In this document: positions 2,683-42,823 of the stretch, in pieces
Layout: the number at the start of each line of letters is the position of its first letter
Numbering within the stretch: the stretch's first letter is position 1
DNA from: an uncultured bacterium
GTDB lineage: Bacteria; Patescibacteriota; Minisyncoccia; Moranbacterales; GWC2-37-73
DNA: 64,000 bases
Assembly: GCA_903851135.1 (NCBI GenBank)
Contig: CAINNK010000045.1
Coordinates: 28,289 to 92,288 of the forward strand
Reading direction: 5' to 3'
Translations under genes and position numbers: made by a program
The notes under the pieces: model-generated
What the model was told of the DNA's origin: nothing
What the model saw: the letters and a program-made list of their open reading frames with translations, nothing else
The model's database searches: none

Positions 2683-3597
2683 ATGTTAGCACGTAAAAAA
2701 ACATACATTCAAAATTGCACCGGCCCTCACCTTAGAAGAGGAGAAAGGGAAGCAAAAAGAAAAGTGAAAAGCGGGATTATTTCCAAAATCGTGTTTGGTT
2801 TTTTGTTGTTAGCTTTTATCGGCGTGACGGTTTATGTTTTGTTTTTTTCAACTTATTTGAAAATTTCCCAAATTAATATTAGTGGCAACGTAGAACTTAA
2901 CGCGGACGAAATCAAAAATGTCGTTGAAAGCAAGCAGCAAGGAAAATTATTCAAAACAATTCCTAAGGATAATTTTTTGTTGATTAGCGCAAAAGACATA
3001 GAAAATTCACTCGCTGGTCAGTTCAAGAAGATAAAGCAAGTCTCGGTAATGAAAAAATTTCCAGATACTATAAACGTGAGCTTGCAAGAAAGAACAGCTT
3101 TGTTAATTCTTTGTGAGGGAGAAAAATGTTTTTTGATTGATGAAGTTGGTAATGCATATAATGAAGCTGATTTTAGTTCTCCGGAACTTACGCAGAATCA
3201 TCTGATAAAAATTGTCGATAAAGGTTTAAGTCGCGTCAAAGTAGGGGATAATATTTTGGATCAACCCTATGTGCAATATGTATCTTCCTTAAAAGAGCAA
3301 CTTCAAAGTTTGGGACTATCAATTGAAGGTGAATATTGGACGCCAGCTTTGGCAGCTGATGAAATTAATGTAAAAGTGACAGGGGGCGAAGAGCTTTATT
3401 TTTCAACTTTATTTCCACTTAAAAGTGCAATTGAAACCTTGAATATTGTTTTGAAAAAGGAATTGTCAGGAAATCAACCGTCAGAAATTACCTACATTGA
3501 CCTGCGAACAGAGAATAAGGTTTTTTATAAGCTCAATGCTGCAGCTCCGCCAGTTGAAAATGTTGATAATCAAAACACAGATAAAAACAAGAAATAA
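2683..3597 (+). CDS. FtsQ/DivIB-like cell division protein (single N-terminal TM plus POTRA-like region)
   Basis: One TM helix (IVFGFLLLAFIGVTVYVLFF) followed by a soluble beta-rich domain. Sits after holB. True start may be an internal Met near 2760. Confidence 0.4.
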   Translation: MLARKKTYIQNCTGPHLRRGEREAKRKVKSGIISKIVFGFLLLAFIGVTVYVLFFSTYLKISQINISGNVELNADEIKNVVESKQQGKLFKTIPKDNFLLISAKDIENSLAGQFKKIKQVSVMKKFPDTINVSLQERTALLILCEGEKCFLIDEVGNAYNEADFSSPELTQNHLIKIVDKGLSRVKVGDNILDQPYVQYVSSLKEQLQSLGLSIEGEYWTPALAADEINVKVTGGEELYFSTLFPLKSAIETLNIVLKKELSGNQPSEITYIDLRTENKVFYKLNAAAPPVENVDNQNTDKNKK

Positions 3598-3661: not shown

Positions 3662-3696
3662 AAAAAACCCTGCTTAATGTGAGCAGGGTTTTTATG
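3662..3696. terminator. Bidirectional rho-independent terminator (AACCCTGCT...GCAGGGTTTTTAT)
   Basis: Perfect GC-containing stem flanked by A-run and T-run, lying between the convergent genes 2683-3597 (+) and 3708-5609 (-). Confidence 0.6.
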
Positions 3697-3707: not shown

Positions 3708-5609
3708 TTACTGCGCTATTGGACTAGTAATATGATAAATTAGGATTGATTTGCCAATTTGATCAACTGGTTTGTAATTTCTGGTCCAACTGTAAGTTTC
3801 ACTGGAGTCTCGTTTAGTGTCATAAATGCTGCCCATGAGATAATTTTCTGAAATAGCATACCAACCAGTTTCAATTGGGCGCTTGCTGTCAGACCAAGCG
3901 ACGTATTTGTTGCCTAAGACTAATTGCGGCACGCCACCCCCGAAATAGTCAACATGAATTTTTTCTATCACGCCGAAATCTCGATGCAAAATGCATTTTT
4001 TGATTGCGCTTTTTGAGCTTGTTAAGGTTGGGATGTCTCCAAATTGTGGACAATTATTGACGTCATCAATCCAAATTTTTAAGCGATTCAAATCTTGTCC
4101 CCAGTCAGTGTTGGAATCAGTCACGTATTGATAACCATTTTTTGAGCCCCCAATTGATTCATTGAAATAGGAGGTGTAGCTTGGATAGGCAAAAACGGCT
4201 GCACTGATTTGCCAAAAAATCAAAATAGCGACAATTATAGCCAAGCTGTGTCCGGATTTTATTTTTTTATCATGGATAAATTCAAAAACCTTTTTACTAA
4301 TCAAAAGATAAGCAAATGGCAAAATTGGAAACAAATGCCTGAAGCCGATGTTAAGTCCACCCTGAATACTGATGTATGCATAAAGGAAAATGAAGCCAAA
4401 CAAGGAATATTCCACGACAGAACTTCGTAGGAAATTGGTAATCTTCTTTTTCTTGGCAGAAAAGGCGGAAGCGATTATTTGTTTGAAGGTATAGCCAAGT
4501 GCAAAGACAGCTAGGAATAAAAACGGAATTGTTTCTTTGATCAGAAATACAATTGGAAAATAATTAAGAAAGCCATTACCAACCTTGCCCATGAAATAAG
4601 CACCATTGCCACCCACGACGCGTTTGACTGTCCAAGCTGGTCCAAAAGCGTAAGTTGCCCAAGGTCGGGTTAGGGCTGACTGGTTTAGACTGTGTAGCAA
4701 ATGATTAGTGACGGTGGCTTTTGCATTGCTGTCGTCGACTGCAAAGAAAAAATCAATGGTTTTGTCGAAAGTTTCTTTCGGCATAGCGTAGTTATTGACC
4801 TTATACACAATCCAAATCACCACAGCTGCTACCAGAAAAGCTGCAACGCCTTTTAATAAATATTGTCCCAGATTTTTGAAACGCGACTTCCAATCATTTT
4901 TTCCATCGCGATTGTTTTTAGCCAAACTATAGATGATTAAACTTAAGCCAAAAATTGGCAGCGCCAGGATGGAAGAAAATTTGCTGACTAGCAATAGCCC
5001 CAGGAAAAATCCACCCAAACCAACATTTTTCCAAGAAGGCGTTTTGATGAATTTCAAGAAATAATAAAAAGAAAAAGTTAGGAAAGCGGCTACGCCTAAA
5101 TCGGTGGTCACAAAATGATTGTGTCCCAAAATGTTTGGATCAAAAGCATACAAAATTAAAGCAAAAAGTCCGGCTGAAGTGCCCGCTAGTTCTTTGCCCC
5201 ATTTGAAAAGAAAGAGGCCAAGCAAAACTGAAAGCAAGATGATTGGTAGGCGTGACCAGAAAATTATCTGATCGGCATTGTTGCCAGCTTCATAAAGCAA
5301 ATGTTTGCCAGCAGCCCATTGACCTTCATCCCAAACACCGGGCAAGTCACCAGTCCAAAAAGGTTGCGTGGTGTCAAAGTTTAAATGGAGAAAAAGCAGG
5401 GGAAAGGCAGCCAAATCTTTAATAAGGGGTGGGTGTTCAGGGTTCAAGCGGGTGTCATGTTGGGAGAGATAACTGTAGCCGGCGGGAATGTGGGCAACTT
5501 CGTCAAAAATAGCACTGTCATTTTTGGCATTGAGCATTGAAACGATGATGAAAAATGCCATAATGCCCATAATAACAAACTCGTAGTTTTTGTTGATAAA
5601 TTTTTCCAT
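3708..5609 (-). CDS. Membrane glycosyltransferase, GT39/PMT_2 (ArnT-like) family
   Basis: Polytopic N-terminus carrying FDEVAHIPAGYSY...RLNPEHPPL, the DE-motif loop of lipid-carrier-dependent GT-C enzymes, followed by a soluble C-terminal domain. Confidence 0.6.
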   Translation of the reverse strand: MEKFINKNYEFVIMGIMAFFIIVSMLNAKNDSAIFDEVAHIPAGYSYLSQHDTRLNPEHPPLIKDLAAFPLLFLHLNFDTTQPFWTGDLPGVWDEGQWAAGKHLLYEAGNNADQIIFWSRLPIILLSVLLGLFLFKWGKELAGTSAGLFALILYAFDPNILGHNHFVTTDLGVAAFLTFSFYYFLKFIKTPSWKNVGLGGFFLGLLLVSKFSSILALPIFGLSLIIYSLAKNNRDGKNDWKSRFKNLGQYLLKGVAAFLVAAVVIWIVYKVNNYAMPKETFDKTIDFFFAVDDSNAKATVTNHLLHSLNQSALTRPWATYAFGPAWTVKRVVGGNGAYFMGKVGNGFLNYFPIVFLIKETIPFLFLAVFALGYTFKQIIASAFSAKKKKITNFLRSSVVEYSLFGFIFLYAYISIQGGLNIGFRHLFPILPFAYLLISKKVFEFIHDKKIKSGHSLAIIVAILIFWQISAAVFAYPSYTSYFNESIGGSKNGYQYVTDSNTDWGQDLNRLKIWIDDVNNCPQFGDIPTLTSSKSAIKKCILHRDFGVIEKIHVDYFGGGVPQLVLGNKYVAWSDSKRPIETGWYAISENYLMGSIYDTKRDSSETYSWTRNYKPVDQIGKSILIYHITSPIAQ

Positions 5610-14447: not shown

Positions 14448-14774
14448 ATGACCGATCAAAACGAAGAAATCAACAGTGCGCAGCAGCAGGCCCTTTCGCA
14501 ACTTATTAAGGATTTGGGAATTGACAGTCTGCCGCAGGACAAGCAAAATGAACTTGTCATTAAAATGACCGAAATCTTGCTCAAGCGGATTTTTCTGGAA
14601 ACTATGGATAAATTGGGCGAGCAAGGACGCGAGGAATATGAAAAAATGTCGCAAGGTGAAATTGAACCAGAGCAAGTAGCGGCTTTTTTCAAGGAAAGAA
14701 TCAATAATTACGACGGTCTAGTAGAAGCTATCGTCAAAGATTTTCGCGAAGAAATGTTGGGAGCAAATCAGTAA
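14448..14774 (+). CDS. Hypothetical small acidic protein (109 aa)
   Basis: The ORF track starts at TTG 14406. An in-frame ATG at 14448 (MTDQNEE...) is the more plausible start. Confidence 0.4.
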   Translation: MTDQNEEINSAQQQALSQLIKDLGIDSLPQDKQNELVIKMTEILLKRIFLETMDKLGEQGREEYEKMSQGEIEPEQVAAFFKERINNYDGLVEAIVKDFREEMLGANQ

Positions 14775-14818
14775 TTAGTAGCTAGTAATCAGTAACCAGT
14801 AATTCGGAAATTAAAAAT

Positions 14819-15253
14819 ATGAAAAGTAATTTGGAACCAATTGAAGATAACGACTTGGATTTTGAAGCAAGGTTTAGAAGACCAGCAAACGACAATTTTC
14901 AGGAGAAAGAGATTCCAATTCATGCGGCAGAAAAAGAAATGTCGACAGAGGTCAGTTCAGCTGAAAATGATTCAGCTTATGGCAAAATTCTTTCAAAAGT
15001 TCAGGCACAAACTGATGATGATGTTAATCAGGATGAACTTTCTCAGGATGCTCAAGCCTTGGCTCAAAAAACCGATGCACAATCGAGAGTCAGTTATCTG
15101 ATTGACATTGCTGGACAAAAGGGGGTTGTCTATGCAGTGAAAGTTGCCCGTCAAATGGAAGACAATTATGTTTTGGACAATTTTCATGACAAACTTTTGG
15201 GCAGTGAATTGCACGATGCTTTGGTGGCAAGGGGAATGATTAAAGAACTTTAA
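14819..15253 (+). CDS. Hypothetical acidic protein (144 aa)
   Basis: Open frame in operon context; no motifs. Confidence 0.4.
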   Translation: MKSNLEPIEDNDLDFEARFRRPANDNFQEKEIPIHAAEKEMSTEVSSAENDSAYGKILSKVQAQTDDDVNQDELSQDAQALAQKTDAQSRVSYLIDIAGQKGVVYAVKVARQMEDNYVLDNFHDKLLGSELHDALVARGMIKEL

Positions 15254-18837: not shown

Positions 18838-18870
18838 TCTTTTTTGGAATTCAAAATATAAAAACAAAAA

Positions 18871-18899
18871 AATCCCGCTTCTTTGGAAGCGGGATTTTT
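18871..18899. terminator. Bidirectional rho-independent terminator (AATCCCGCTTC-TTTG-GAAGCGGGATTTTTG)
   Basis: Perfect stem with flanking A-run and T-run, between the convergent genes. Confidence 0.6.
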
Positions 18900-19774: not shown

Positions 19775-22294
19775 CTATTGAATCGCCATCGAAATCAACC
19801 CACTTAAAGTCACCACATAGGCGGTTTTATTTTTTTCATCAACGGCAAGAGCTGTGCCATTCTTAAGGTTTTCGCTATAAAATTGAGCGGTGATTGAGCC
19901 GCTGGCCTTGTCATATTGCACCAAGCGTGAATTTTTGGTATCCAATGCGTAGAGCGATTTCAAATCAATATTGGTAAATATTTTGTCAAATTGCACTGGT
20001 GTATTGGAGGTTTCTAATGTCAGGGCTTCCTGTTTGCCTTTGGAGAACTTGAGAACTTGGTTGTTTTTAACAATATAAACACTGTCGTCGATTGTCAGGT
20101 CGGAAGTGCTATCAAGGGTGACATTGTCCTTCAACCAGTTTATTTGATCTCCAAAACCACCGTCAGCTCTTGGATAGCGGGCAATTTGGTTGGCAGCCGG
20201 ATCAAGCACATAAAGATAAGTCAGATAAGTTCCAATCAAACTGGAAGCTGAAGCGTTGCCAAGATTGATTTTGTTTTCGGAAAATTTTGAGTTGGCTGGC
20301 GTAAAAGACGAAACTTTATTTTGGTCCGTAAGGAGTATCACGGTTGAAATTGAGGACATGTAGGTTGAAGTGACAATATTGCCAATGTTGCTTGGCAGCG
20401 GATATTCGAATTGTTGTCCATTTTTCAGGGTGATGACATTTTTGTCGGTCGTTGTGATAATGTTGCCGTCAGTCACTAGGACATTTTTAAGGTTGGTTTT
20501 GGAGAGCAAATTTGTTGTCTCGTTGTTGAAGCTGATGTTTTTTTCATTTGCTAATTTGGCAACTTGTGAAATTGGAGCAACCGGCAAATCTTTGATGGTG
20601 GCTGGTTTTGGTCGGTTGAGCCAGTTGGCGATAAAGATTGGCACAACGAAAATTATCACCAAAGATAATAAGGCATTTATTTTTTGCTGCGAAGTCATTT
20701 TTTGATAAAGCCCTTTTAATTTTGAAAGATGGGGAATAATCTTTGAATCTTTCAGGTTTAGTTTTTTGTTTTTTGTTTTTTGAAAAATAGCAGTAATCCA
20801 GTATGATAGTGGTCGTTGGATTTTTTGCAATGACTTAAAGCTCGCAATTATTTTTGCAGTTGCTTGGCCAAGAAAAAAATTCAATCTTTCAAATAAAAGT
20901 TTGAAGCGTTGTTGATTTTTAAAATCCGTTTGTTGATTAGTCTGCAGAGCTAATAACTCCTCATCTTCGGCACTGTTATTTTCCTCGTTTTCAAAATTTT
21001 CTTGTTGGGCAGCTGAAAATTCTTGAACAGATTGAGGTTTTTCTTTGAGGTTTATTATTTCAGCCAGTTTTCTTTTTGGGCTAGGGTTTGGTCTTGGTTG
21101 TTCTGTTGCTGGTTCTGGCTCACGCATGTCCTCTAGTATTTTCTCGGCTTGCGCTTGCTGCAGGAGGAGTTGTTCTTGTTCAAGCTGAAGTTCTTTTTCG
21201 GCCTGGACTTGTTGTTGGCGTAACTCGGCTTTGTTTTTGACTTGCTGGATTTTTTTTGCCAGTCGTTTTTTGAGTAAATTGGCATTTCTACCTAGGCTGT
21301 TTTTGGTAAAATTCCAACCGTCAGTCATTTTTTCAACGGTCAGTTCCCAATAATGTTGCGCCTGACTAATCTCTTCCGGTGGAGCTCCTCCTTGGACATA
21401 GATGTGGCCAGTTTTTTTGTCAGTATATTCTGTTGTTGGCGATTCTTCCTGCGTCTGATTCAAGTCGACAATCGTTGAAGAAATAACATTTTTTTCAGAA
21501 AAAGCCGTATTACTGAAAACGTTAATGCTTTCTTGTTCGAAATCATCATCAATGGTAGTTAGTTTTTTTGCGGCAGGAATTTTTTTGGCTTCTTCAAAAT
21601 CAGTCACAATGGTTGCGATCATCTCCAGTTCATTTGAAAGCGCTGTTTTCAAAAATTGCACGAATTGTTGCTTGGTTAGTCGCTCAAGATTTTTTTTGAG
21701 ATCTGACAACTTGAGAATATGAAAAATATCTTCACAGGTGATGATGAGGCGATCTTCTTTTTCAAGCCTACCACTGGAAACGTTGATAAAAGTCTTGAGT
21801 GGGTGTGGCGCGTTTTCATCTGAAGAGAGGCCTTCACCGATGTCGGTTAATATTTTTTTTCGGCTAAGGAAAATTTTTGCATTGCCGGCAACTGTAAAAT
21901 GAATAGAGTTCTTTTCAATGACGCAAATTGCTGCGTGCAGTTTTCCAATCCACTCCACGTTGCCGTGTTTGGCAACTTCTGATAAGGCTAAATTGACTTT
22001 GTGTAGGGCGCTGTCAAAACTTTCAGTAACAGATCTTCTGGGATTGGTGTAGTATTCTTTCTTTAAAACAGAAGTAAGGAAGTTCACAACGTAAGCTGAT
22101 TCTTCACTGTATTCCTTGATTTCAAAAAAACCAATCAGATTGCCCAGTGGTTTTTGATAAATGTTTTCTGGAGCATATTCAAAAAGCTCAATGTAGGGCT
22201 TGAGCGAGGAGTTGTTTATCACCAAAATAGGGGAAATGTTTTTTTGCAGTTCCTTGATGGAGTCTAATTTTTTTTCAGTATTCTTAGCGGGCAT
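19775..22294 (-). CDS. Large hypothetical single-pass membrane protein: N-terminal cytoplasmic domain, Gln/Glu-rich coiled coil, TM, C-terminal beta-rich extracellular domain
   Basis: 839-aa ORF with TM segment LLSLVIIFVVPIFIANWL near residue 540. The C-terminus has repeated strand-like segments. The N-terminal ~190 aa could be a degenerate PP2C/SpoIIE-like fold (weak). Confidence 0.45.
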   Translation of the reverse strand: MPAKNTEKKLDSIKELQKNISPILVINNSSLKPYIELFEYAPENIYQKPLGNLIGFFEIKEYSEESAYVVNFLTSVLKKEYYTNPRRSVTESFDSALHKVNLALSEVAKHGNVEWIGKLHAAICVIEKNSIHFTVAGNAKIFLSRKKILTDIGEGLSSDENAPHPLKTFINVSSGRLEKEDRLIITCEDIFHILKLSDLKKNLERLTKQQFVQFLKTALSNELEMIATIVTDFEEAKKIPAAKKLTTIDDDFEQESINVFSNTAFSEKNVISSTIVDLNQTQEESPTTEYTDKKTGHIYVQGGAPPEEISQAQHYWELTVEKMTDGWNFTKNSLGRNANLLKKRLAKKIQQVKNKAELRQQQVQAEKELQLEQEQLLLQQAQAEKILEDMREPEPATEQPRPNPSPKRKLAEIINLKEKPQSVQEFSAAQQENFENEENNSAEDEELLALQTNQQTDFKNQQRFKLLFERLNFFLGQATAKIIASFKSLQKIQRPLSYWITAIFQKTKNKKLNLKDSKIIPHLSKLKGLYQKMTSQQKINALLSLVIIFVVPIFIANWLNRPKPATIKDLPVAPISQVAKLANEKNISFNNETTNLLSKTNLKNVLVTDGNIITTTDKNVITLKNGQQFEYPLPSNIGNIVTSTYMSSISTVILLTDQNKVSSFTPANSKFSENKINLGNASASSLIGTYLTYLYVLDPAANQIARYPRADGGFGDQINWLKDNVTLDSTSDLTIDDSVYIVKNNQVLKFSKGKQEALTLETSNTPVQFDKIFTNIDLKSLYALDTKNSRLVQYDKASGSITAQFYSENLKNGTALAVDEKNKTAYVVTLSGLISMAIQ

Positions 22295-22405
22295 TTGTTT
22301 ATGATTATAACACAGTTGGTCGAAATAATCACTATCAGTATTCTTTTATAATAGCCCAAATTGACTTTGGTTGCAATTGGTTTTTTTGTATTTTTGCATA
22401 TAGGA

Positions 22406-22451
22406 GCACTTAGGGACTAAGTCCCCAATTGGGGACTTAGTCCCTAAGTGC
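22406..22451. repeat. Perfect 46-bp palindrome GCACTTAGGGACTAAGTCCCCAATTGGGGACTTAGTCCCTAAGTGC (REP-like), copy 1
   Basis: Exact reverse-complement symmetry, with nested GGGACT-A-AGTCCC sub-hairpins. Copies at 23884-23929 and 24406-24457, half copy at 24182-24200. Confidence 0.85.
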
Positions 22452-22506
22452 GAATTCAATATATAAACAAAATTATCTATAAAAACTCCATTTGACACAC
22501 TAAGCT

Positions 22507-22516
22507 GGGGGGGGGG
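22507..22516. repeat. Homopolymeric G10 tract
   Basis: CTGGGGGGGGGGTAAAA, ~100 nt upstream of the 22614 ORF. Confidence 0.8.
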
Positions 22517-22613
22517 TAAAATAAAAGCAAATAGGGGAACTTAATTAAAAAAATAATAAACCTAAACTTTTGGAAATTATTTTTTTTAAAAAATATTTTT
22601 CGAAAACAAAATT

Positions 22614-23621
22614 ATGGGAATCGAAGATGGAGGTTTTAACCTTCCGCAAAAAAAAGAGAAGAATTCTAAAGATGAGCGCAAAAAAGGAACAGGCGAATTT
22701 ACACCTGATGAAGGTAGCGAGCAAATTCCCTCTTTAATGGGAAAATGGAAAGTAAATGAGGGCGAGATAGAAGAACTTTTTTTGGAAAACAAAAAAAACG
22801 CTGAGTTGAAACGCGAGGAATGGGAACAAAAAGTTGAGTCAGTGGATTCTTTTGAAGAAAATCAAGTTGTTATTGAAGCTAAAGCCACTTTTGAAAAAGG
22901 AGAATGGGATATTCCAGGGCTTGAAAGTCCAAAATCAATTCAAAATGATCCAATGTTCAAAGACAGTGCGGTGGAGTTATTAAAAAATGGTTCTTTCAAT
23001 ATTTATGACGGTGTCGATTATAAAGATGCTGATTATATAAGTAATTATACATTTTGTTCTTCACCTTATCCAGCTGAATCATTTTTTTCTGCAGATGGAA
23101 AAAAAGTCGAGGTTGGTGGTGAAAAAGGATTTCTTTGGGCTCAGCATATTGGAAAAATTGGAAGACGTAATAATTCAAAACAATTAGAAGAATATTACAG
23201 ATATGAGGCGACGGAAAAAATAAGTGTGGGAGACTGGGAAAAGCTTAAAGAAAAATTTGGTTCAGTTGTTTTAGATCATGGATATAGAAATAAAGATGGT
23301 GAAATTGAAAAAGCAGAATATATAAAACTTTATGCACACAATGGTTATCCACTTTTGATAGTTCGAAAAAGTGAAGGAGATATTGAGGTAGTTGGTGGCA
23401 ATGAAGTTCAAGATCTTCAATTAAATGTGTCAAATGAATTTTCTTATGGCAGTGAATATAATGAACTTGCAGATAAAGAGGAGGATTCAGTTGTTGCGTA
23501 TAAGATAAGAGCGCATAAGATAAGCAAGAAAGAGAATGAGATTAGATCAAAGGAAATAGGTTCTCTCAAGAATGATTTTGAGAAGACAGTGTATTTAATT
23601 TCTGCTGTGTGGCAACATTAA
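22614..23621 (+). CDS. Hypothetical acidic protein (335 aa) carried between the palindromes
   Basis: No TnpB-like RuvC or zinc-finger motifs. Function unknown. Confidence 0.4.
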   Translation: MGIEDGGFNLPQKKEKNSKDERKKGTGEFTPDEGSEQIPSLMGKWKVNEGEIEELFLENKKNAELKREEWEQKVESVDSFEENQVVIEAKATFEKGEWDIPGLESPKSIQNDPMFKDSAVELLKNGSFNIYDGVDYKDADYISNYTFCSSPYPAESFFSADGKKVEVGGEKGFLWAQHIGKIGRRNNSKQLEEYYRYEATEKISVGDWEKLKEKFGSVVLDHGYRNKDGEIEKAEYIKLYAHNGYPLLIVRKSEGDIEVVGGNEVQDLQLNVSNEFSYGSEYNELADKEEDSVVAYKIRAHKISKKENEIRSKEIGSLKNDFEKTVYLISAVWQH

Positions 23622-23644
23622 TTTCTCTTTCTAGTAAGAAATAG

Positions 23645-24394
23645 TTGAGAAATTTCAATAAAATCCCCCAAGTTGAACCCTTGGGGGATTTTTGTTATGC
23701 TGGGGATATGCGGAAAACAACTTTTGCTAATGGTGAATTTTATCACATCTACAACCGTGGCGTCGACAAGCGCGAGGTATTTTTGGCTGAGGCAGACTAC
23801 GAAAGGTTCTTGATTTGTTTGCGAGAATTCAACCGCATCGAAGCGATTGGGAGTTTGTATGAAAAAAGTTTCAAAAAAGTAGAGCACTTAGGGACTAAGT
23901 CCCCACTTGGGGACTTAGTCCCTAAGTGCGAGCCCCTTGTTGAAATTGTTGCTTATTGTTTGAATCCAAATCATTTTCATTTAATTCTAAAACAAATTTC
24001 AGAAAAAGGAATTAGTAAATTCATGCTGAAGGTAAGTACTGGTCATACTACTTATTTCAACAAGAAGTATAAACGTAGTGGTTCATTGTTTCAAGGGCCA
24101 TTTAAGGCAATTCAAATCGATTCGAATGACTATCTGCTTTATCTTTCTGCCTATGTGAATAGAAACTATTTTATTCATAACTTGGGGACTAAGTCCCCAA
24201 GTGAAATCTCGCAAGGTGAATGGAAATATTGCAGTGCTTTGGATTATTTGGGAAAAAGAAATGGAAACCTTTGTAACAAAAGCGCAATCCTTGATCAATT
24301 TAGGAGTGTCAATGATTATGAAATATTTTTGAATGATAACGCTGTGTACTTAAAAGAGAAAAAAGAATTGGAGAAATATCTATTGGAGGAATAA
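23645..24394 (+). CDS. IS200/IS605-family Y1 (HUH) transposase, REP-associated tyrosine transposase (RAYT)-like, with in-frame palindrome insertions
   Basis: EFYHIYNRG...VFL N-terminal motif, HuH motif in AYCLNPNHFHLIL, GSLFQGPF, and catalytic-Tyr region LSAYVNRNYFIHN. At 249 aa it is longer than typical (~140-160 aa) because palindrome copies encode EHLGTKSPLGDLVPKCE and LGTKSPSEISQ. Confidence 0.6.
   Translation: MRNFNKIPQVEPLGDFCYAGDMRKTTFANGEFYHIYNRGVDKREVFLAEADYERFLICLREFNRIEAIGSLYEKSFKKVEHLGTKSPLGDLVPKCEPLVEIVAYCLNPNHFHLILKQISEKGISKFMLKVSTGHTTYFNKKYKRSGSLFQGPFKAIQIDSNDYLLYLSAYVNRNYFIHNLGTKSPSEISQGEWKYCSALDYLGKRNGNLCNKSAILDQFRSVNDYEIFLNDNAVYLKEKKELEKYLLEE
23884..23929. repeat. 46-bp palindrome copy 2 (one central mismatch, CACTTG instead of CAATTG), inside the transposase ORF
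   Basis: Same sequence as 22406-22451 apart from one base. Translated in frame. Confidence 0.85.
24182..24200. repeat. Half-palindrome TTGGGGACT-A-AGTCCCCAA inside the transposase ORF, directly after the YFIHN catalytic motif
   Basis: 9-bp perfect stem, identical to the inner arm of the 46-bp palindrome. Confidence 0.75.
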
Positions 24395-24405
24395 AACAGA
24401 AGAGA

Positions 24406-24457
24406 AAATTTCTTAGGGACTAAGTCCCCAATTGGGGACTTAGTCCCTAAGAAATTT
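24406..24457. repeat. Palindrome copy 3 (52 bp: AAATTTCTTAGGGACTAAGTCCCCAATTGGGGACTTAGTCCCTAAGAAATTT)
   Basis: Same 40-bp core with different outer arms. Lies 12 nt after the transposase stop. Confidence 0.85.
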
Positions 24458-24633
24458 GTTGCATTAACTTTAAATATGCCAAAAGGGCGGGTTGCTATTT
24501 GGCATGGGAGCTGTATAATAGAGGTAAAGTTGCTTGTCCAGGTTAGCGTTTTTTGCGTATATCCTAAGAGCTTAATTTAATTTAAATTTTTTTAAAGAAT
24601 TTTTTTGAGCAAGGCTCACTGAAATTCACATTA

Positions 24634-25245
24634 TTGGTTATGTCTGAAGTCCTTGAAATGCTTTTTGGTTCGAAAGCAAGAGTTAGGGTGTTGAGATTTT
24701 TTCTGCTTAATAGTGAAAATGAATATAGTGTTGAAGAGATTACCAAAAAAAACATGTTGACTTCGGCTGCTGTTCGTAAGGAAGTAAATTCTCTCAAAAA
24801 AATAGGTTTTGTTAAGGAAAAAACCAAAAAAGGTGTGAAAACATATTTGCTTGATTCTTCGTTTCATTTTTACTCAGAGCTGAAAAGTTTATTTTCAAAA
24901 TCAACCGCTTCTCCGGAAAGTAAAAGTCTTGCGCGGCTAAAAGGAATTGGGGACGTAAAGCTGGCGTTAGTGAGTGGGATTTTTTTGAACTATCCGAAAA
25001 GTAAGGTAGATATGGTGCTAGTGGTGAATAATGTGAGTCGTTCAAAGCTAAAAAATGTTATGAGTAGTCTTGAGGCTGAGATAGGCAAGGAGGTCAGTTT
25101 TGCACTCATGAACAGTGAAGAATTCAAATATCGCTTGGACATGTTGGATCGTTTTTTGTTGGATTTCCTGGAAGGTCCTCATACTGAACTGATAGATAAG
25201 ATTCCTGGACTCAAGAGATTTATTTTGGGATTGAAAAAATACTAA
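24634..25245 (+). CDS. Hypothetical protein with N-terminal winged-helix-like segment
   Basis: ARVRVLRFFLLNSENEYSVEEITKK...AAVRKEVNSLKKIGFV resembles ArsR/MarR-type wHTH. The rest is uncharacterised. Confidence 0.35.
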   Translation: MVMSEVLEMLFGSKARVRVLRFFLLNSENEYSVEEITKKNMLTSAAVRKEVNSLKKIGFVKEKTKKGVKTYLLDSSFHFYSELKSLFSKSTASPESKSLARLKGIGDVKLALVSGIFLNYPKSKVDMVLVVNNVSRSKLKNVMSSLEAEIGKEVSFALMNSEEFKYRLDMLDRFLLDFLEGPHTELIDKIPGLKRFILGLKKY

Positions 25246-30429: not shown

Positions 30430-30454
30430 ATTTCAGATTATAGAATTGAATAAC

Positions 30455-30484
30455 ACAAAACCCCGTATTTACGGGGTTTTGTGT
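30455..30484. terminator. Bidirectional rho-independent terminator (ACAAAACCCCGTA-TTT-ACGGGGTTTTGTGT)
   Basis: Strong GC stem with flanking runs, between convergent genes. Confidence 0.6.
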
Positions 30485-30549
30485 TTCAAAAGAAAAAAAT
30501 TCAATTGAAGAAAAGAACGATAATTTCAGTTTAAGTTTGTTGTAATAAC

Positions 30550-37990: not shown

Positions 37991-38020
37991 AAAAAAGAAG
38001 CTCTTATGAGCTTCTTTTTG
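37991..38020. terminator. Bidirectional terminator (AAAAAAGAAGCTC-TTAT-GAGCTTCTTTTTG)
   Basis: Perfect stem between convergent genes. Confidence 0.6.
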
Positions 38021-41738: not shown

Positions 41739-41810
41739 GCCACCCTAGCTCAACGGTAGAGCTACTGTTTTGTAAACAGTAGGTTATCGGTTCAAATCCG
41801 GTGGGTGGCT
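41739..41810 (+). tRNA. tRNA-Thr (anticodon UGU)
   Basis: Hand-folded cloverleaf: acceptor GCCACCC/GGGTGGC, D arm GCTC-AACGGTA-GAGC, anticodon arm ACTGT-TTTGTAA-ACAGT, T arm AGGTT..TTCAAAT..CCGGT wait-checked as GGTTATCGG/TTCAAAT/CCGG. No encoded CCA. Confidence 0.7.
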
Positions 41811-41923
41811 CAAGGAGATGTAGAATGTATTATGTAGAAATGTATGATGTATTTTGTAGTATGTATAATGTATGTGATTTAATGCATGATACTTTATACA
41901 AAATACATAATACTTGAGCCCAG

Positions 41924-42006
41924 GGGTAGATACCAAAGTGGTCAACTGGATCTGGCTGTAAACCAGACGGCTTACGCCTTCGGGGGTTCGAATCCCTCTC
42001 TGCCCA
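41924..42006 (+). tRNA. tRNA-Tyr (anticodon GUA), long variable arm
   Basis: Acceptor GGGTAGA/TCTGCCC (one G-U pair), anticodon arm TCTGG-CTGTAAA-CCAGA, long variable arm, T arm GGGGG-TTCGAAT-CCCTC. Confidence 0.75.
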
Positions 42007-42021
42007 CAAAATTTAAAACAA

Positions 42022-42046
42022 ATGCCCCTCAAGGCATTGGTTTTTA
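42022..42046 (+). terminator. Hairpin AATGCC-CCTCAAG-GCATTGG followed by a T-run
   Basis: Stem plus TTTTT directly after tRNA-Tyr. Confidence 0.4.
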
Positions 42047-42244
42047 ATTTTGTATGATAGTGAAAAGGGATTCGAACCGGCAGCAGTGAGCTAGAAATTT
42101 TTCAGTAGGAAAATTTCGCAGCGAACGCCGACAAATGCGGATGAGCATTTGGCGCTGCCGCGGACAAGGAGTTTGTGAGTGTCGACGAACAAACGATGCG
42201 ACGCTTATTTCTTAACCCAGTTCTTATCACTACCAAATTGTATT

Positions 42245-42317
42245 GCCGTTGTAGCTCAGTTGGTAGAGCACATCCTTGGTAGGGATGAGGTCTGCGGTCC
42301 GATTCCGCACAACGGCT
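42245..42317 (+). tRNA. tRNA-Thr (anticodon GGU)
   Basis: Acceptor GCCGTTG/CAACGGC perfect; D arm GCTC-AGTTGGTA-GAGC; anticodon arm CATCC-TTGGTAG-GGATG; T arm TGCGG-TCCGATT-CCGCA. Confidence 0.75.
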
Positions 42318-42491
42318 CAGGAAATTTAAAAGGTATGGCGCCCCAGCACCAAATTCCGAAAAGAATTTGAGGTTGGATAAAATTTTCTTCACGGAAACGC
42401 CTCCGGCTTAGGTTAGTAATAATTGTAAATTTTAATAAAGAATTGGTGCGGGACGCTCATATTTGTAGCTGTTCGTACCTCACAGACAAAT

Positions 42492-42656
42492 ATGGCGACA
42501 AAGACAAAGGAAAATTTGGTGAAACTGAAATGTAGTGAATGCAAAAACATCACCTATTACACTTCACGCAACAAGAAAATTATCAAGGAAAAACTTGAGC
42601 TCAGCAAGTATTGCAAATTCTGCCGCAAGCACACAAACCACAAGGAAATGAAGTAG
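42492..42656 (+). CDS. rpmG: 50S ribosomal protein L33
   Basis: MATKTKENLVKLKCSECKNITYYTSRNKK...KLELSKYCKFCRKHTNHKEMK matches the L33 zinc-ribbon pattern (C-x2-C...C-x2-C). 54 aa, below the ORF-track cutoff. Confidence 0.8.
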   Translation: MATKTKENLVKLKCSECKNITYYTSRNKKIIKEKLELSKYCKFCRKHTNHKEMK

Positions 42657-42691
42657 TTTATATTGGGCGGGCTTTGCCCGTCTTTATATTT

Positions 42692-42762
42692 GCGGGTGTC
42701 GTATAGTGGTAGTACGTCGGTCTCCAAAACCGTTGGCGGGAGTTCGATTCTCTCCACCCGTG
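42692..42762 (+). tRNA. tRNA-Trp (anticodon CCA)
   Basis: Near-collinear with E. coli tRNA-Trp: anticodon arm TCGGT-CTCCAAA-ACCGT, T arm GGGAG-TTCGATT-CTCTC, acceptor GCGGGTG/CACCCGT (G1-U72 wobble). Follows rpmG. Confidence 0.75.
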
Positions 42763-42823
42763 CAAACTTACAAGGTTCTCAAAAGACCGGTTACCCATGC
42801 TGGGAAAGGCCTTGAAAACCCAG

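Follow-up and report, generated by a model that had tools for sequence, protein, structure and literature searches.

REP/REPIN systems of the Escherichia coli type, in which a REP-associated tyrosine transposase (RAYT) goes with repetitive extragenic palindromic sequences (REPs) and their inverted doublets (REPINs), have reportedly been described by Nunvar in 2010, by Bertels and Rainey in 2011, and by Ton-Hoang and by Messing in 2012, and the Rickettsia palindromic elements (RPEs) are said to go back to Ogata and colleagues in 2000. That REPs can lie in frame inside their own tnpAREP gene was reported for subclass 2.4, a feature called unique to that subclass of Cyanobacteria and Bacteroidetes, while subclass 2.1 was reported without REPs (Quentin, Siguier, Chandler and Fichant, 2018; BMC Genomics 19:475, PMC6006769). 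Intragenic REPs in other genes have been reported as well (Di Nocera et al., 2013; PMC3733652), and the concept of in-frame intragenic REPs is therefore already known. Here we consider a 64,000-nt stretch (the window) of contig CAINNK010000045.1 from an uncultured member of the Patescibacteria, in which a gene for a RAYT-like Y1 HUH endonuclease, tnpA, is accompanied by palindromes of one family that lie upstream of it, inside it and just behind it. The first-pass annotation of this DNA saw in it an unusual palindrome-transposase relationship, which is an overstatement given the in-frame REPs already described in tnpAREP genes. In the literature that we searched, RAYT/REP systems were not reported from the Candidate Phyla Radiation (CPR), an absence that is limited to that literature. 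We think it probable, with appreciable room for doubt, that the locus is a REPtron, that is, a vertically inherited gene for a CPR RAYT-like Y1 HUH endonuclease together with its own cognate palindromes, which the enzyme is predicted to process. The gene and its palindromes in the window are as follows.

23708..24394, + strand: tnpA, Y1 HUH endonuclease of 228 aa, RAYT-like CPR (Patescibacteria) family, assigned from the Pfam Y1_Tnp match, homologues and the AlphaFold2 fold.
22406..22451, no strand assigned: type A REPIN-like palindrome, perfect, 46 bp, an inverted doublet of a hairpin unit of ~21 nt.
23884..23929, + strand: S1, intragenic type A REPIN doublet, the 22406 palindrome with one central mismatch.
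24180..24202, + strand: S2, intragenic single REP unit, a perfect 23-nt hairpin, ACTTGGGGACTAAGTCCCCAAGT, with an 11-bp stem.
24406..24457, no strand assigned: DOWN, type A REPIN doublet, a perfect 52-bp palindrome with the common 40-bp core.

Counted over the whole window, the type A family consists of these four copies (22406, 23884, 24180 and 24406), and no copy of the motif occurs in the remaining 62 kb. The core motif GGGACTWAGTCCC has 7 matches in the window, all of them between 22413 and 24447, against 0 to 0.3 in shuffles. The long copies are inverted doublets of the hairpin unit of ~21 nt (type A unit: CTTRGGGACTWAGTCCCYAAG), the 24180 copy is one perfected unit, and as single-stranded DNA the long copies have folding energies of -25 to -26 kcal/mol (about -25.5), with z-scores of about -10 to -12. 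The 22406 palindrome is placed in the divergent intergenic region between an open reading frame (ORF) of 839 aa on the - strand and a 335-aa ORF on the + strand (ORF335), 1.26 kb upstream of tnpA; it is identical to S1 across 50 nt (22404-22453 versus 23882-23931), save for one central mismatch. A search of Rfam with positions 21800-25200 gave only sub-threshold matches that resemble generic hairpins, and no known RNA family. The first-pass annotation had placed both the perfect 46-bp palindrome and its one-mismatch copy correctly, and it had rightly taken the palindromes within the ORF for the same REP-like element as the flanking ones. Its in-frame translations of the two intragenic copies, EHLGTKSPLGDLVPKCE and NLGTKSPSEISQ, are likewise correct, S1 being read as (E)HLGTKSPLGDLVPKC(E) and S2 as NLGTKSPS. 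Two details need adjustment: the 52-bp copy with its 40-bp core is there, but it begins 11 nt rather than 12 nt past the TAA stop of tnpA (24392-24394), and the supposed 19-bp half copy at 24182 corresponds to the perfect 23-nt hairpin at 24180-24202.

The gene itself, of which the window contains one copy, is intact. It had been listed as an ORF of 249 aa that opens with TTG; since the homologues all start at MRKT, the ORF stands but the true start is likely the ATG at 23708, which gives 228 aa. Its description as a RAYT/IS200-like Y1 HUH enzyme is borne out by a match to Pfam PF01797 (Y1_Tnp; 30.4 bits, gathering cutoff 23) and by a fold match to PDB entry 4er8. The Pfam match is confined to profile positions 41-120, because the S1 insert interrupts the N-terminal part, and it ends at the conserved tyrosine Y149. 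The HUH motif, H89-F-H91, lies at 23972-23980 and the catalytic Tyr149 lies in SAYVNRN at 24152-24154. H89 and H91 are invariant in both alignments (27 and 120 sequences), and Y149 is invariant in the smaller one and at least 90% conserved in the larger. These three residues are conserved across the family and therefore the YFIHN just before the half copy, which had been named as the catalytic motif, was misassigned; S2 follows the conserved His157. In the tyrosine motif of the window protein, Y149-V-N-R-N153-Y, the Asn is conserved relative to the class 2 motif Y---NP (PMC6006769), while the Pro is absent throughout the family, whose consensus is YVNKNN or YVNLNx.

A protein search returned ~3,900 homologues, the best of which are 55-72% identical over the full length, measure 212-250 aa and come from Moraniibacteriota, Parcubacteria and other Patescibacteria. 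The family spans 212-250 aa even with the shortest loops, so that the window protein is not the unusually long TnpA that it had been taken for. The 212-aa homologues were considered as possible insert-free forms, which proved wrong, as they contain a single S1 hairpin that encodes, for example, LGHPVSKL. In an AlphaFold2 model built on the 120-sequence alignment (predicted local distance difference test score, pLDDT, 86.5; predicted template-modelling score 0.84), the only regions of low confidence are residues 63-71 (pLDDT below 50) and 161-170 (mean pLDDT 57), that is, the palindrome-encoded segments. S1 (residues about 59-74) sits between a helix at 50-59 and the beta-strand that precedes the HUH motif (89-91), and S2 (158-165) sits just past the helix that bears the catalytic Tyr149. 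Both segments therefore fall in loops, as the first-pass annotation had proposed to check, and they are the sole length-variable, low-confidence loops of TnpA, bracketing an intact catalytic core. By Foldseek, the PDB structure that best matches the model is 4er8_A, in which the E. coli RAYT binds a REP hairpin (E 4.7e-5; template-modelling score 0.67 relative to the target), followed by the TnpA proteins of IS608 and ISDra2. A family sequence profile compared with all PDB chains found nothing at E <= 0.01, and the kinship showed in the fold comparison alone.

The arrangement seen in the window recurs throughout the family. We scanned 79 genomic loci (83 genes) with homologues from Patescibacteria for hairpins with at least 9 perfect base pairs, and the hairpins were found to occupy four canonical positions, being near-identical within a locus and different between loci.

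UP hairpin: 7-50 nt before the ATG, occupied in 48/83 genes.
S1 hairpin: reference residues 57-77, occupied in 53/83 genes.
S2 hairpin: reference residues 156-176, occupied in 25/83 genes.
DOWN hairpin: -4 to +35 nt from the stop, occupied in 54/83 genes.

The spacing is tight, with about 230 nt from UP to S1, about 292 nt from S1 to S2 and about 208 nt from S2 to DOWN. No hairpin reached the threshold in 8/83 genes, and at the canonical sites of several genes counted as empty the hairpin peptides can still be made out in decayed form. Each palindrome is either a lone 23-nt REP hairpin, ACTTGG-N11-CCAAGT, or an inverted, REPIN-like doublet of it, the 23-nt unit being constant and its foot symmetric, (C)ACTTGG...CCAAGT(G), with CTTAGG in the window. 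Hairpins differ at a median of 0/23 positions within a gene versus about 10/23 between genes, and stem positions 7-10, in the upper stem, use all four Watson-Crick pair types across loci. Paralogues within one locus each have their own hairpin type (L011, L035). No fixed left-end/right-end orientation was found, UP and DOWN having the same relative orientation in 13 loci and the inverted one in 17. Single intragenic units share one reading frame in 36/37 cases (CTT GGx ... AAG, read as LGxxxxK), while 68/74 alternative frames are free of stops. The density of hairpins drops from 14.2 per 10 kb inside the genes to 0.7 within 2 kb of them and to about 0.1 at a distance of 6-10 kb. Close relatives can differ in the presence of S2 (e.g. 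P0003 versus P0128). The idea that a TnpA gene had been invaded by its own palindrome thus survives as far as the in-frame copies of its own element are concerned, but not as a one-off invasion, since the same four positions are used in 79 related loci. A decayed tnpA fragment of about 29 codons with an in-frame TGA was seen at L187 3369-3508, preceded by its own double hairpin GGCGGTCCAACCCCCGACATGGGGGTTGGACCGCC and located 2 kb from an intact paralogue with a different hairpin type.

Syntenic relatives of the window provide a view of how gene and palindromes change. The neighbourhood in the window, consisting of adh_short, the 839-aa ORF (- strand), ORF335, tnpA, a helix-turn-helix (HTH) protein of ~201 aa and RmuC, recurs in relatives as adh_short, an ORF of ~830 aa, a small ORF, tnpA, the HTH protein and RmuC, and tnpA is present at the orthologous site even in diverged relatives with 70% protein identity. 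One such relative, L202, aligns with the window across the region; its protein P0128 shares a 90%-identity cluster with P0003, which is 70% identical to the window protein. At three positions where the window has type A, L202 has perfect palindromes of another type, B (TGGAGGCTCAACCTCCA...), namely in the intergenic region (2199-2247), at S1 (3197-3247) and at DOWN (3719-3767), while at S2 it has a unit of type A that deviates by one mismatch. Between the window and L202 the palindromes are 46-58% identical and their flanks 70-100%. Types can also be mixed in one locus, as in L200, where S1 and S2 are of type A and the downstream palindrome is of another type. In a further relative, L205 (GCA_037138835.1; protein P0122), tnpA is deleted from S1 to DOWN, leaving a 63-aa stub; the deletion junction, GAGCACTTAGGGACT joined to TAGTCCCTAAGAATTT, lies inside the palindrome, and the upstream intergenic type A copy has acquired five changes that break the palindrome. 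At the P0125 locus, 249 nt separate the upstream gene from a 123-aa C-terminal stub, which is consistent with a deletion between the 22406 and S1 palindromes, for which about 250 nt are predicted. In L063, an N-terminal tnpA fragment (14728-14952) lies 8 kb from the full gene, to which it is about 85% identical; the homology breaks off precisely where an S1-type hairpin has its 3' edge. This hairpin matches the gene's own S1 at 30/31 positions, and a flipped base in its loop has created a stop codon. To judge from these alignments, palindrome types are replaceable at fixed positions between orthologues, the palindromes are the breakpoints of gene-destroying deletions in sister genomes, and gene and hairpins co-vary. 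The alternatives offered by the first-pass annotation, a domesticated linker or an inactivated gene, can be judged on this basis: a tolerated or domesticated in-frame linker fits the window copy, because its HUH and Tyr residues are intact and in-frame hairpins occur family-wide, and inactivation does not apply to this copy, being seen instead in sister genomes as deletion between palindromes.

Similarity between the window and the tnpA of L202 is also mosaic (window 24131-24202): identity is 100% over the 49 nt that precede S2 and 96% within S2, against about 70% from S1 to the middle and 78% in the 5' part. This pattern suggests a recombination or conversion tract around S2.

Some copies lie at a distance from the gene. 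The flanks of related loci, 943 kb in all, contain 28 locus-cognate hairpins, whose density falls with distance, and the 22406 palindrome is best read as such a dispersed copy in the next intergenic region. In a metagenome scan with the 15-mer GGGACTAAGTCCCCA, most matches were single and possibly due to chance, so that only doublets, with two motifs 19-20 nt apart, were trusted; on this basis the 32-nt core of the window was found in doublet form in at least 20 further metagenomic contigs, whose fetched stretches contain no homologue of tnpA. Palindromes also lie in frame in housekeeping genes, those for lysyl-tRNA synthetase (LysRS), a class V aminotransferase, LigA, GatB, an Elp3-like radical S-adenosylmethionine protein, the delta' subunit of DNA polymerase III (Pol III) and a Mur ligase, whose proteins give full-length Pfam matches around the insert (LigA and the Elp3-like protein in two genomes each). 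The same site carries different palindrome types in the two LigA genes (L160 3867-6152 versus L066 1265-3325) and in the two Elp3-like genes (L008 7285-8955, - strand, versus L057 2979-4661). The further housekeeping loci with in-frame palindromes are these.

L087 1320-2822: housekeeping gene with in-frame palindrome.
L109 696-2021: housekeeping gene with in-frame palindrome.
L037 14467-15912: housekeeping gene with in-frame palindrome.
L105 1272-2297, - strand: housekeeping gene with in-frame palindrome.
L117 3827-5257, - strand: housekeeping gene with in-frame palindrome.

How would such a distribution arise? As in a REPtron, the window gene is flanked by cognate REPs, with copies just past its stop and in the upstream intergenic region, and it combines low copy number with vertical inheritance at a fixed locus, as indicated by its single occurrence in the window and the neighbours shared with relatives. 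By analogy with the E. coli RAYT on its REPs, the enzyme would bind the hairpins that the palindromes form in single-stranded DNA, and would cut and rejoin at their conserved foot. It could thereby seed new copies, mostly nearby, and it might overwrite or convert resident copies where they lie and so keep them homogeneous. Intragenic copies would then survive only where an extra 8-17 residues are harmless, so that the encoded peptides (LGTKSP..., generally LGxxxxK) would be passengers rather than functional linkers. Several observations speak against our reading of the locus. Cleavage of these hairpins by TnpA is a predicted activity. The match to the NCBIfam RAYT model NF047646 (REP_Tyr_transpos) reaches 18.6 bits, far under the equivalog cutoff of 80, and the REP foot, which has no GTAG or CGTC tag, is without the GT[AG]G tetranucleotide recognised by canonical RAYTs. 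Compared with classical REPs dispersal is weak, given the low copy number and the absence of copies from the other 62 kb of the window. Because only hairpins with 9 or more perfect base pairs were detected, the percentages of pairing carry an ascertainment bias, although the contrast within versus between loci is unaffected. Homogenisation could come about by ordinary gene conversion instead. Finally, local hopping combined with tolerance explains poorly why the density of hairpins is about 20-fold higher inside the gene than in adjacent intergenic DNA, and why one frame is used in 36/37 single intragenic hairpins when 68/74 alternatives are stop-free; density and frame bias are hints that integration is site-specific, that resident copies are replaced in place, or that those inside the gene have a function. 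It is conceivable, if unlikely, that the four-hairpin architecture reflects site-specific cassette replacement, in which the enzyme would cut at the ACTTGG/CCAAGT foot to either side of a 23-nt hairpin already in place and would ligate in the currently active type. If so, REP sites in tnpA and in essential genes, LigA and Elp3 for example, would keep their position and frame in the long term while their sequence is repeatedly overwritten, which would be a new mode of concerted evolution inside coding sequence.

A function of the hairpins in cis would account for the same two features. It is possible, though we consider it improbable, that the hairpins are functional elements of tnpA that are selected at fixed positions and autoregulate or throttle transposase expression, either because TnpA binds its own hairpins in single-stranded DNA or mRNA or because RNA hairpins act via ribosome stalling or RNase III cleavage. 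Positions and spacing are indeed strongly conserved over a deeply diverged family, hairpins remain perfect within coding sequence, and the single reading frame and the roughly 20-fold intragenic excess over nearby flanks would follow. However, occupancy is patchy, S1 and S2 being filled in only 53/83 and 25/83 genes and 8/83 having no hairpin, with P0003 and P0128 differing in S2, hairpin orientation is not fixed, and the region from 22 kb to 25 kb (21800-25200) has no Rfam match. Moreover, regulation at the RNA level does not need a shared sequence in the four hairpins and leaves the identical copies in other genes and intergenic regions unexplained.

The deletions in sister genomes call to mind another arrangement, in which the hairpins are alternative transposon ends, the enzyme excises or moves hairpin-bounded modules of its own gene and neighbours, and the intragenic copies provide a built-in self-limiting or rearrangement switch. 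The L205 deletion runs exactly from S1 to DOWN with its junction inside the palindrome, the L063 fragment stops at the 3' edge of the S1 hairpin 8 kb from the full gene, and the 50-nt identity of 22404-22453 and 23882-23931 would suit such ends, as would the gap at P0125 (249 nt versus about 250 nt predicted). That last match may be a coincidence, since the upstream gene measures 862 versus 839 aa and the locus is known without its DNA sequence. Recombination of the RecA type or replication slippage at repeats or palindromes of 40-50 bp would give the same deletions without a transposase; no excised module was found reinserted intact elsewhere, and the deletions destroy the gene, which makes them look like a cost rather than a selected function. 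We therefore hold this arrangement to be decidedly improbable. The in-frame copies in unrelated housekeeping genes (LysRS, LigA, GatB, Elp3-like, Pol III delta', Mur ligase and class V aminotransferase) and the intragenic REPs known from other bacteria (PMC3733652) could instead be taken to mean that the palindromes, whether autonomous and selfish like RPEs or generated by palindrome-prone replication, accumulate independently of the enzyme in tolerant loops and spacers. This seems very improbable to us, as it does not account for the extreme concentration at tnpA (four sites in about 0.75 kb in most of the 79 loci, decaying with distance), for the separate hairpin type of each paralogue in a genome (L011, L035), for the concerted switch of type at three sites of one locus (L202), or for the decay of the remaining copy where the gene is lost (L205). 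A REPtron whose enzyme is predicted to process its cognate hairpins thus remains the reading that we prefer.

Two further features adjoin the gene in the window.

22614..23621, + strand: ORF335, lineage-specific ORFan neighbour gene; self-match only, assigned from synteny.
23660..23692, + strand: terminator-like hairpin with T-run in the canonical UP position, 16 nt upstream of the start of tnpA; outside the type A family.

ORF335 had been proposed as a passenger of the unit. A search of a collection of 5.8 billion proteins found no homologue besides the protein itself, and there is no Pfam or NCBIfam match. The orthologous position holds an ORF of 178 aa in L202 (2388-2924) and one of 120 aa in L205 (2568-2930), and DNA alignment shows that ORF335 and the L202 ORF share only their start (MGIEDG). 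Since syntenic relatives have a variable ORF at the same position, we abandoned the passenger or cargo idea, and ORF335 is, from its synteny, a very fast-evolving neighbour gene outside the element. A G10 homopolymer upstream of ORF335 (window 22507-22516) is conserved, together with the TAAAATAAAAG that follows it, in L202 and L205 and could be a slippage-prone or promoter-associated tract. The hairpin at 23660, which is kept in L202, was considered as a REP of another class, a possibility that we dropped because its A-run/stem/T-run form is that of other terminator-like hairpins in the window; it is probably an ordinary intrinsic terminator for ORF335. Symmetric A-run/stem/T-run hairpins lie between genes at 3663-3693, 18868-18899, 30452-30485 and 37992-38019 and look like ordinary bidirectional intrinsic terminators that are unrelated to the palindrome family. 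The window also contains a cluster of four tRNA genes at 41739-42763 (Thr-TGT, Tyr-GTA, Thr-GGT and Trp-CCA).

For the annotation of CPR genomes and for protein-family alignments, in-frame palindromes in essential genes are of practical importance, and the palindromes also break short-read assemblies. Public short-read assemblies of the source organism are interrupted within the palindrome at 22406 and again at the 23692 hairpin (L201 corresponds to window positions of about 22421-23693, and other short contigs carry P0121 or P0001). Palindromes thus fragment assemblies, and split or truncated gene calls are probably caused by this.

To our knowledge, the small genomes of Patescibacteria are not usually regarded as REP/RAYT hosts. 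In-frame REPs inside their own RAYT gene extend beyond one subclass of Cyanobacteria and Bacteroidetes and are the rule in a large Patescibacteria family (~3,900 proteins in our search). The three syntenic relatives form a natural series: one has an intact gene with palindromes of type A, the next an intact gene in which type B occupies those sites, and in the third the gene is deleted between two palindromes and the orphan copy is decaying. At the level of sequence comparison, this series is direct evidence that the turnover of the enzyme goes hand in hand with that of its palindromes and that copies inside the gene come at a real cost. In addition, the constant 23-nt unit with its conserved foot and fixed frame offers a concrete substrate for hairpin recognition by a RAYT-like enzyme without a GTAG guide.

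How, then, does this family relate to the systems described? With the IS200/IS605 elements (TnpA of IS608 and ISDra2) it has in common the HUH/Y1 fold and hairpins that flank the gene. However, the tyrosine motif is Y---Q in IS200/IS605 and Y---N (Y-V-N-R-N) in the window, where tnpA also lacks a tnpB partner, and the distinct left and right ends of fixed orientation in those elements contrast with the symmetric palindromes of unfixed orientation in the CPR family. Nor are there several near-identical copies with empty orthologous sites, as expected of such elements, tnpA being present in the window as a single copy at a syntenic chromosomal site. Like RPEs and intragenic REPs, the CPR palindromes are in-frame palindromic repeats in functional genes, including those for replication and repair, that add 8-30 residues in tolerated regions. 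They differ in being shorter (23-52 nt), in forming families that are tied to a neighbouring Y1 enzyme gene, and in that orthologous genes (LigA, Elp3-like, tnpA) carry different palindrome types at the same site between genomes. The E. coli RAYT (TnpAREP, PDB 4ER8) is the best structural match, and its gene too is flanked by cognate hairpins. E. coli RAYT/REPIN systems further resemble the CPR family in having REP singlets and inverted doublets, one REP type per paralogue, a gene that is vertically inherited at a fixed locus, and REPs that decay after gene loss. Unlike them, the CPR family is too dissimilar in sequence for detection by hidden Markov model comparison with PDB chains or by the NCBIfam RAYT model, it lacks the GTAG guide tetranucleotide and has the C-terminal extension of about 70 aa, and its copies are far fewer, locally concentrated and also found inside the gene.

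The closest parallel in architecture is with the subclass 2.4 REPtrons (PMC6006769), where cognate REPs flank a Y1 HUH gene and the same REP recurs within it. The intragenic REPs leave the reading frame unbroken and fall in a variable region at the periphery, REP dimers occur along with collapsed double-foot forms, and the copy number per genome is low. The two differ in lineage, with Cyanobacteria and Bacteroidetes there and Patescibacteria (CPR) here, and in their motifs, which are NH[IFV]H, WQ and YIxNNP in subclass 2.4 and NH[YF]H, FQ, YVN[KLR]N and SS in the CPR family; in the window protein NHFH fits the former set, but where subclass 2.4 has WQ and YIxNNP it reads LFQG and YVNRNY. In their motifs the CPR proteins come closest to subclass 2.1 of the same classification. 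The REPs of subclass 2.4 are long or double-footed, with a foot of the form GT[AG]G...C[TC]AC, whereas the foot in the CPR family is ACTTGG...CCAAGT, and the insertion sites of that subclass are not those used here, which lie before HUH (S1) and after Y149 (S2). What is new in the CPR family relative to the known cases is thus its lineage, its motifs, its insertion sites before the HUH motif and after the tyrosine, and a REP foot without GT[AG]G.

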